From Escherichia coli (lineage in GTDB: Bacteria > Pseudomonadota > Gammaproteobacteria > Enterobacterales > Enterobacteriaceae): DNA of 64,000 nt. The notes beneath the pieces were generated by a model. The model was not told the DNA's origin. It saw only the letters and a list, made by a program, of their open reading frames with translations, and did not search any database. The DNA lies in NCBI RefSeq assembly GCF_017348835.2, contig NZ_CP071375.1; one strand, written 5' to 3'. Below are positions 58,349 through 60,648 of the stretch, one piece after another. The translations under genes were made by a program, and so were the position numbers. How positions within the stretch are numbered: position 1 is the stretch's first letter; the number at the start of each line of letters is the position of its first letter.

Positions 58349-58725
58349 TCTTCTTCATTTATGCCCGTCTTATCCGTTTCCGCTTTGCCCTTCACCACAT
58401 CACTTTTTGTCGCTGTTTGGCGAGATAATTCAACGGTGTCAGGCCGTAAAACGCCTTAAAAACAGAGATAAAGTACGACGTGCTGCTATAGCCACATAAT
58501 TGCGCCACCTGAGTGATATTTTTGTTATCCATCAATAACATCTGTACGGCGTAACGCATACGACACTCTGTGACAATCTGGCTATAGCTGGTATTTTCGT
58601 TTTTTAATTTCTTTTTGAGCAGGCTGGGGCTTAAACATAGCGAACTGGCGACAATTCGCAGATTCCAGTAATGAACCGCCCCGGAAATCCTGGAGACTAA
58701 ACTCCCTGAGAAAGAGGTAAACAGG

Positions 58726-59052
58726 ATGACTAAAAATACTCGTTTTTCCCCCGAAGTCCGTCAGCGGGCGATTCGTATGGTTCTGGAAAGTCAGGATGAA
58801 TATGACTCACAGTGGGCGGCAATTTGTTCCATTGCCCCAAAGATTGGCTGTACGCCGGAGACTCTGCGTGTCTGGGTTCGCCAGCATGAGCGGGATACCG
58901 GGAGTGGTGATGGTGGACTCACCACCGCTGAACGTCAGCGTCTGAAAGAGCTGGAACGTGAAAATCGTGAACTGCGCCGCAGTAACGATATCCTTCGCCA
59001 GGCTTCCGCTTATTTTGCGAAGGCGGAGTTCGACCGCCTCTGGAAAAAATAA
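58726..59052 (+). CDS. IS3-family transposase OrfA (HTH)
   Basis: 108-aa, matches IS629 OrfA as recalled. Confidence 0.85.
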
Positions 59053-59939
59053 TGCCACTGCTGGATAAGCTGCGTGAGCAGTACGGGGTCGGACCGGTAT
59101 GCAGCGAACTGCATATTGCCCCGTCAACGTATTACCATTGTCAGCAACAGCGACATCATCCGGATAAACGCAGTGCCCGTGCGCAGCACGATGACTGGCT
59201 GAAGAAAGAGATACAGCGCGTATACGATGAAAATCACCAGGTATACGGTGTGCGTAAAGTCTGGCGTCAGTTGTTACGGGAAGGTATCAGAGTGGCCAGA
59301 TGCACTGTGGCACGTCTCATGGCAGTTATGGGACTTGCCGGTGTTCTCCGGGGTAAAAAGGTCCGCACTACCGTCAGCCGGAAAGCCGTTGCCGCATGCG
59401 ACCGCGTAAACCGTCAGTTCGTGGCAGAACGTCCAGACCAGTTGTGGGTGGCTGATTTTACCTGGGTAAGCACATGGCAGGGCTTCGTTTATGTGGCGTT
59501 CATCATTGATGTGTTCGCCGGATACATCGTGGGATGGCAGGTCTCATCATCCATGGAAACAACATTCGTGCTGGATGCACTGGAGCAGGCGTTGTGGGCC
59601 CGTCGGCCGTCCGGCACAATCCATCACAGTGATAAAGGTTCTCAGTATGTATCGCTGGCCTACACGCAGCGGCTTAAGGAAGCCGGATTACTGGCATCAA
59701 CAGGGAGTACTGGCGACTCGTATGACAACGCGATGGCGGAGAGCATCAATGGTCTTTACAAAGCGGAGGTAATACACCGTAAGAGCTGGAAAAACCGGAC
59801 AGAAGTGGAACTGGCCACACTAACGTGGGTGGACTGGTATAACAATCGACGATTGCTGGAAAGGCTGGGCCATATTCCTCCGGCAGAAGCAGAAAAAGCT
59901 TATTATGCTTCCATCGGAAATAATGATCTGGCAGCCTGA
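59052..59939 (+). CDS. IS3-family transposase OrfB (DDE catalytic domain)
   Basis: 295-aa rve-type DDE transposase; start overlaps orfA stop, consistent with an orfAB frameshift fusion. Confidence 0.85.
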   Translation: MPLLDKLREQYGVGPVCSELHIAPSTYYHCQQQRHHPDKRSARAQHDDWLKKEIQRVYDENHQVYGVRKVWRQLLREGIRVARCTVARLMAVMGLAGVLRGKKVRTTVSRKAVAACDRVNRQFVAERPDQLWVADFTWVSTWQGFVYVAFIIDVFAGYIVGWQVSSSMETTFVLDALEQALWARRPSGTIHHSDKGSQYVSLAYTQRLKEAGLLASTGSTGDSYDNAMAESINGLYKAEVIHRKSWKNRTEVELATLTWVDWYNNRRLLERLGHIPPAEAEKAYYASIGNNDLAA

Positions 59940-60648
59940 GTTCACAGATAAAACACTCTCCAGGAAACCCGGGGCGGTTCATAATGCTGAATATCGCTTT
60001 GAATAATGCGGCAGACGCTGTCGCGGACGCTGCTGCGTAAGATATACATCAGTAGGGCAATAAACCGCGATTGCTCAAGAAAGTTAGACAATACGGTAAA
60101 AAGCAATGCGCGCGTCAACTCCGCTTCGCAGGGTTTGCTGGGTTGCTGCTTGCTGTGGTTGGCGGCTAGCCGGAACACTTCCGGTGTACGGCTATGACAA
60201 GCGATAACCGGGGTAGCCAGCCGCGACCAGGGCTTTACACAGGTTAAGTTCTTATTTAAAAACAACAGATAATCGTTGATGATGTTACGGTTGATGTGGG
60301 TGATTAATACGTGATTTAACGTTGAGAGTTCAATAACGTTATTGTTGCACGCGAAGGCGGCCAGGTAGTTTTTCGGAAGGGTAAACGTAGCATGGTTATT
60401 GACGCTTACCTCTACCTCTTTTTCGGTCAGGATCACCACGCAAGGTTCACTGCTGCTCAATTGCATTTCGCACTCCTCAGATATCAGAAACTCCGCTCAA
60501 AGGATCTATGCTTCCTGCATGAGTGATCGGCCCGTTCGCCGATAACGATCTTCTTTCTTTAGCACGCTTTTTAGCAATTAATCTTGATGGAATTCTGACG
60601 AGAGCGAAAGAGGTAAGCCAGGTCGTACCCGACTTACCTGGAGGAGAT

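Follow-up and report, generated by a model that had tools for sequence, protein, structure and literature searches.

An apparently recent IS629-type insertion splits envY in a pig isolate of Escherichia coli

IS629 is an insertion sequence of E. coli and Shigella, of which IS1203 and IS3411 are treated as isoforms; its sub-types differ by 4-5%, and it inserts without a sequence-specific target, leaving duplications of 3-4 bp (PMC3271280). [quoted passage not shown] These insertions have 3-bp duplications, lie in strains with an amplified IS family, and have a scored phenotype, and the one in lacZ undergoes IEE-driven reversal. The K-12 gene envY (b0566), which encodes an AraC-family regulator of 253 amino acids and lies by the end of the DLP12 prophage, is uninterrupted.

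Here we describe a 64-kb stretch of E. coli DNA (the window, to which all coordinates refer unless a record is named) in which envY has the same 253 codons and the same neighbors as in K-12, but is split at codon 162 by an insertion sequence (Table 1). As in the lacZ and O-antigen cases, a chromosomal gene is interrupted by an element of the IS3 family that is flanked by a 3-bp duplication, and the IS family of the strain is amplified; in contrast to the reversal seen in lacZ, iee was undetected on the chromosome here. We conclude that this is a routine and apparently recent IS629 insertion, an ordinary kind of event, that made envY a strain-private pseudogene. An initial annotation of the sequence had proposed a clean, probably recent IS629-like insertion in envY; our analysis supports that interpretation, and confirms the observation behind it with a one-base correction to the right coordinate of the element.

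Table 1. Coordinates of the insertion, its components and the adjoining features in the window.
Feature	Coordinates	Strand	Description
argU tRNA-Arg 3'-end copy (prophage attR)	58302..58348	+	47 bp, 44 bp past envY stop
envY 3' fragment	58392..58671	-	last base of codon 162 to codon 253 + TGA
Target-site duplication TAA, left copy	58669..58671		single TAA in F2_81 and K-12 empty sites
IS629-type insertion sequence (IS3 family)	58672..59981	+	transposase direction opposite to envY
IRL (left terminal inverted repeat)	58672..58696	+	starts 5'-TG
orfA	58726..59052	+	108 aa; HTH_Tnp_1, DNA-binding part of transposase
OrfAB fusion (predicted)	58726-59939	+	404 aa
ALIL pseudoknot (Rfam RF01497)	59007..59123	+	frameshift stimulator of this IS group
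A6 run (TGG AAA AAA TAA)	59044..59049	+	orfA/orfB overlap; likely -1 slippery site
orfB	59052..59939	+	295 aa, -1 frame vs orfA; HTH_21 and rve/DDE catalytic core
IRR (right terminal inverted repeat)	59957..59981	+	ends CA-3'
Target-site duplication TAA, right copy	59982..59984		single TAA in F2_81 and K-12 empty sites
envY 5' fragment	59982..60466	-	codons 1-161 + first two bases of codon 162

The element is 1,310 bp long, and a 3-bp TAA directly abuts each of its ends. The pig strain F2_81 and K-12 MG1655 are both empty at this site and carry one TAA (GATTCCAGTAATGCTGAAT); around this single TAA they read ...CCAGTAATGCTG..., and the junction sequence of envY::IS629 is CCAGTAATGAACCGCCCCGG. 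Because both empty sites have a single TAA, the two copies are not a chance match, and the 3-bp duplication that had been called from the interrupted locus is proven. The ends of the element are also fixed independently: a second copy on the chromosome of strain PE164 (RefSeq NZ_CP114128.1) shares with the envY copy the bases at which similarity starts and stops.

In silico excision of 58672-59981 together with one TAA gave, on translation, a frame of 762 nt that comprises 253 codons and the stop codon TGA, with no internal stop. The initial annotation had traced envY along the minus strand from the ATG at 60466 to the right end of the element, and from beyond the left end to the TGA at 58392, and this frame is present as it described. 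Its excision recipe holds in that a continuous 253-codon reading frame is recovered, but not in the right coordinate that it gave to the element, 59982, with which the right TAA copy already begins; the true end is 59981. An element at 58672-59982 is therefore rejected, as the sequence left after cutting it out is out of frame, with a length of 761 or 764 nt (761 nt if three more bases are removed, as the recipe literally reads).

With its flanks, the excised locus measures 1,488 bp, and it is 100.0% identical to F2_81 in one ungapped piece. Across the larger locus, the left side is 99.87% identical to F2_81 over 6,775 bp, and the right side, that of ybcH/nfrA, 100% over 4,019 bp; the insertion sequence itself is the sole discontinuity, and its flanks carry no further damage. 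The 64-kb window holds no further copy of the element, which thus forms neither a composite transposon nor an IS-bounded rearrangement, and both are ruled out.

Could the element have been misplaced into envY during assembly of a many-copy genome? The chromosome of PE164 has matches to the IS query in 32 places, repeats of the kind that usually cause mis-joins, and the window and the RefSeq record of PE164 differ by one base inside the envY copy. A mis-join would not, however, make a perfect 3-bp target duplication with collinear flanks that are 100% like the uninterrupted locus of a relative, and the junctions are identical in the window and the record, so that we regard an artefact as exceedingly improbable. 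The insertion is known from this one assembly lineage, on whose junctions window and record agree. Over 61.6 kb the two differ by six single bases, at positions 72, 15192, 16490, 24035, 26496, and 59738. Position 15192 is within the intD pseudogene, and at 59738, in the element, the window has G and the PE164 record T, a synonymous difference in an Ala codon of orfB; the G makes the element of the window identical to another PE164 copy. The window probably stems from a different assembly version or a sister isolate.

The inserted DNA has the architecture of the IS3 family. Both ends read TGAACCGCCCCGG, the right one as reverse complement, with matches at 13/13 terminal bases and 22/25 overall. 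The termini are TG...CA; the repeats are imperfect, as in that family, and the length lies within its range of about 1.2-1.55 kb, and the target duplication within its 3-4 bp. The reading frames orfA and orfB overlap, with orfB in the -1 frame and a predicted frameshift between them, and OrfB contains the DDE/rve domain. OrfB matches the NCBIfam model NF033516 (transpos_IS3) with 311.8 bits (cut-off 160), and Pfam finds rve at residues 235-331 of OrfAB (E 8.8e-25), along with HTH_21 and HTH_Tnp_1.

The overlap of orfA and orfB reads TGG AAA AAA TAATG, and a -1 slip in its A6 run would produce an uninterrupted OrfAB of 404 amino acids, the length of the coding sequence that PGAP annotates with a “programmed frameshift.” The A6 run is the likely position of this slip. 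A literature search for the frameshift heptamer of IS3411 found IS3411 listed among IS3-family elements with a downstream structure and did not find the motif, and for this reason we leave the exact slip site as inferred. The ALIL pseudoknot model RF01497 is matched over its full length at 120.3 bits, against a gathering score of 50, with an E-value of 4.5e-32.

At the nucleotide level, the element is 99.5% identical over 1,310 bp to the IS629 annotated by its authors in phage BP-4795 (AJ556162), and shares 98.4% identity with the copies of O157 Stx2a phages. Isoforms are, in ISfinder practice, elements with a nucleotide identity of roughly 95% or higher; the identity to IS629 is in this range, with the AJ556162 element, as named by its depositors, as the reference. 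We see no structural difference from IS629 (isoforms IS1203 and IS3411), with which the element shares TG...CA ends, orfs in the 0 and -1 frames, an A-run, the ALIL pseudoknot, a DDE/rve OrfB, and a 3-bp duplication. By these features it appears to be an intact IS629 isoform of the IS3 family, the name resting on the author-annotated IS629; with its length of 1,310 bp, IS3-family architecture, and 99.5% identity to the BP-4795 element, the earlier label “IS629-like” was apt. This variant occurs at an identity of at least 99% in 198 records, a further band of 95-99% identity comprises 4,837, and the closest among the matches listed are non-O157 STEC (O103:H2, O121) and livestock isolates.

The interrupted gene is the ortholog of K-12 b0566. 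Its reconstructed reading frame shows 100% identity to the uninterrupted envY of F2_81, and the protein that it encodes is RefSeq EnvY WP_001177464.1. Relative to K-12 EnvY, 252/253 residues are identical (R111K; three nucleotide differences), the length is equal, and the genomic position is the same, with the order ompT - argU-fragment attR - envY - ybcH - nfrA - nfrB kept. As NCBIfam lacks a model specific to EnvY, and the best match is GadX at a score under its cut-off, the identity of envY rests on this orthology and not on a family model.

The reconstructed frame bears on the order of events. If envY had been decaying beforehand, or the element were old and fixed, the insertion would be a consequence and not the cause of gene loss, and envY is indeed dispensable in E. 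coli: a match is found in 4,170 of 5,426 complete genomes (in 4,099 of these, one match spans 80% or more of the gene), there is none in 1,256, and in about 70 more the gene is matched only in part. Yet the reconstructed frame is otherwise undamaged and its product is identical to a RefSeq protein of functional length, the insertion is limited to one genome, and the copy in envY has not diverged from its sister copy. Since the frame is intact, we exclude prior decay of envY, and the probability that we would give to the element being a late consequence of gene loss is negligible.

The element separates the second from the third base of codon 162 (Tyr) in envY, within the first of two AraC helix-turn-helix motifs; in reconstructed EnvY, Pfam HTH_AraC matches residues 155-194 and 208-244, while HTH_18 covers 169-245. 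As it stands, the 5' piece is part of a 174-aa reading frame (59942-60466) that runs into the element, and comprises 162 EnvY residues, Tyr162 being kept as TAT via the first IS base, and 12 IS-derived residues (EPPRVSWRVFYL) before a stop. This product is without the DNA-binding domain. Nearly the whole AraC-type DNA-binding domain is encoded by the 3' piece, in which we found no in-frame start until Met199. Loss of EnvY function is expected because the 5' piece has no DNA-binding domain and the 3' piece no start before Met199; judged from this domain architecture, the allele is almost certainly a loss-of-function, or null, allele. The role of EnvY is itself poorly documented, as a full-text literature search for its function found no recent functional study. 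The insertion is already known in the form of database annotation: in NZ_CP114128.1, RefSeq/PGAP annotates the same structure, with “envY, incomplete, missing C-terminus” and “envY, incomplete, missing N-terminus” around an IS3 transposase.

Insertion sequences may also act on neighboring genes, in this case by supplying an outward or hybrid promoter that would be read antisense into ybcH/nfrA on the right or toward ompT on the left. A promoter-like site does cross the right junction (59978-60007, plus strand), with TTCATA, an 18-nt spacer, and AATAAT, and its -35 is formed by the IS end. This site is antisense to envY and ybcH, however, and is one of three promoter-like sites found against 3.6 expected in shuffled sequence. 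No promoter-like site at the left IS end points toward the envY 3' piece or ompT, and a scan of the region for promoters and terminators gave nothing over chance. We therefore consider a promoter effect highly unlikely.

Among the 5,426 complete E. coli genomes, only that of strain PE164, isolated from a pig (diarrhea and blood, Nanjing), has this insertion in envY. Its 32 chromosomal matches to the IS query, and the 27 on the F2_81 chromosome, indicate that this IS family is amplified in the PE164/F2_81 lineage. The sister copy (NZ_CP114128.1, 2399810-2401119) is 100% identical over exactly 1,310 bases, is unlike the envY locus outside these, and is flanked by a 3-bp duplication of its own, AAC. 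With this identical sister copy, the undamaged flanks, and the empty site of F2_81, the insertion appears to be later than the split from F2_81-like relatives, and to be recent and clean; the initial annotation had said as much, and the single interrupted locus in 5,426 genomes agrees with it. The sister copy lies in another prophage region, between ralR, which encodes a type I toxin, and rcbA (NZ_CP114128.1, 2399710-2401219). There, the annotated ralR coding sequence extends 49 bases into the left end of the element, and the 3' end of ralR thus appears to have been replaced by that insertion.

Elements of the IS3 family transpose by a copy-out-paste-in mechanism through a circular intermediate. 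We consider it very nearly certain that envY was interrupted by a recent single transposition of an active IS629-type element from the same genome. The element would have been copied out of a donor elsewhere in that genome and pasted in from a circle between the second and third bases of codon 162, in opposite orientation to the gene and with duplication of TAA. This would have cut off the N-terminal part of EnvY (1-161) from the C-terminal AraC-type double helix-turn-helix DNA-binding domain, and left the 3' piece with neither a promoter nor an in-frame start of its own before Met199. The predicted outcome is a loss-of-function envY allele that is private to the strain lineage, with the rest of the locus unchanged. 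Beside the anatomy of the insertion, its target duplication, the empty site of relatives, the intact element, and the rarity of the interrupted locus, all of which are observed directly, the sequence holds nothing that contradicts transposition.

With flanks undamaged and the transposase intact, exact excision of the element would give back the wild-type gene, and the insertion could in principle be a reversible switch, with IEE removing the element precisely and restoring envY. Reactivation of genes through IEE is documented, and swine ETEC O139 is reported to carry iee together with amplified IS3-family elements (PMC9397093). To look for iee, we joined a single-copy marker (ybcH-nfrA) to iee of strain Sakai (ECs_1305) in a chimeric query. 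PE164 and F2_81 ranked first via the marker, with one place each, but the iee part had no match on either chromosome; the result covers the two chromosomes, and close homologs as found at megablast sensitivity. The iee gene on which such a reversible insertion would depend is thus undetected on the PE164 chromosome at this sensitivity, and without IEE the precise excision of IS3-family elements is rare. That envY::IS629 is a reversible switch is accordingly very improbable, and we favor a plain transposition that inactivated the gene.

We see in the locus a clear instance of the strain-private pseudogenes that IS629 creates as it expands in a genome (32 matches in PE164, 27 in F2_81). A more consequential reading would be that envY::IS629 has altered outer-membrane regulation, under selection and possibly reversibly, in a lineage of pig pathogens with expanding IS629; if so, loss of EnvY would alter expression of porins or of OmpT, next to a prophage that brings in ompT, iss, and an extra porin. 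We think this very unlikely. The significance of the insertion beyond bookkeeping is little: its junction could serve to mark the lineage of PE164-like pig isolates, and a natural predicted null allele of envY in a wild strain would be useful only for students of this regulator.

The prophage beside the locus deserves a brief description. In K-12, DLP12 ends between ompT and envY, and here too envY is just outside a prophage. We considered a tRNA gene between ompT and envY, and rejected it, as ARAGORN finds none there; the tRNA-like stretch is the 47-bp 3' end of argU. This sequence forms an exact direct repeat (15043-15089 and 58302-58348; argU itself is at 15011-15087), and the two repeats bound a lambdoid prophage that is about 43 kb long and occupies the position of DLP12. 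Besides ompT and the bor-like gene iss, it has the head, tail, and lysis genes in full. The annotation of its integrase gene, intD, gives a frameshift and an internal stop, and with intD broken the prophage may have lost the ability to excise. An intact prophage porin gene, annotated “porin OmpC,” lies at about 26871-27953, between the lysis genes and quuD, at the position of nmpC; the K-12 counterpart, nmpC, is broken by IS5. Among the tail-fiber genes is a class I SAM-dependent methyltransferase gene (about 54041-54709, minus strand), intact here and annotated as frameshifted in F2_81, near which are two 121-bp repeats that are 88% alike (53821-53941 and 54870-54990).
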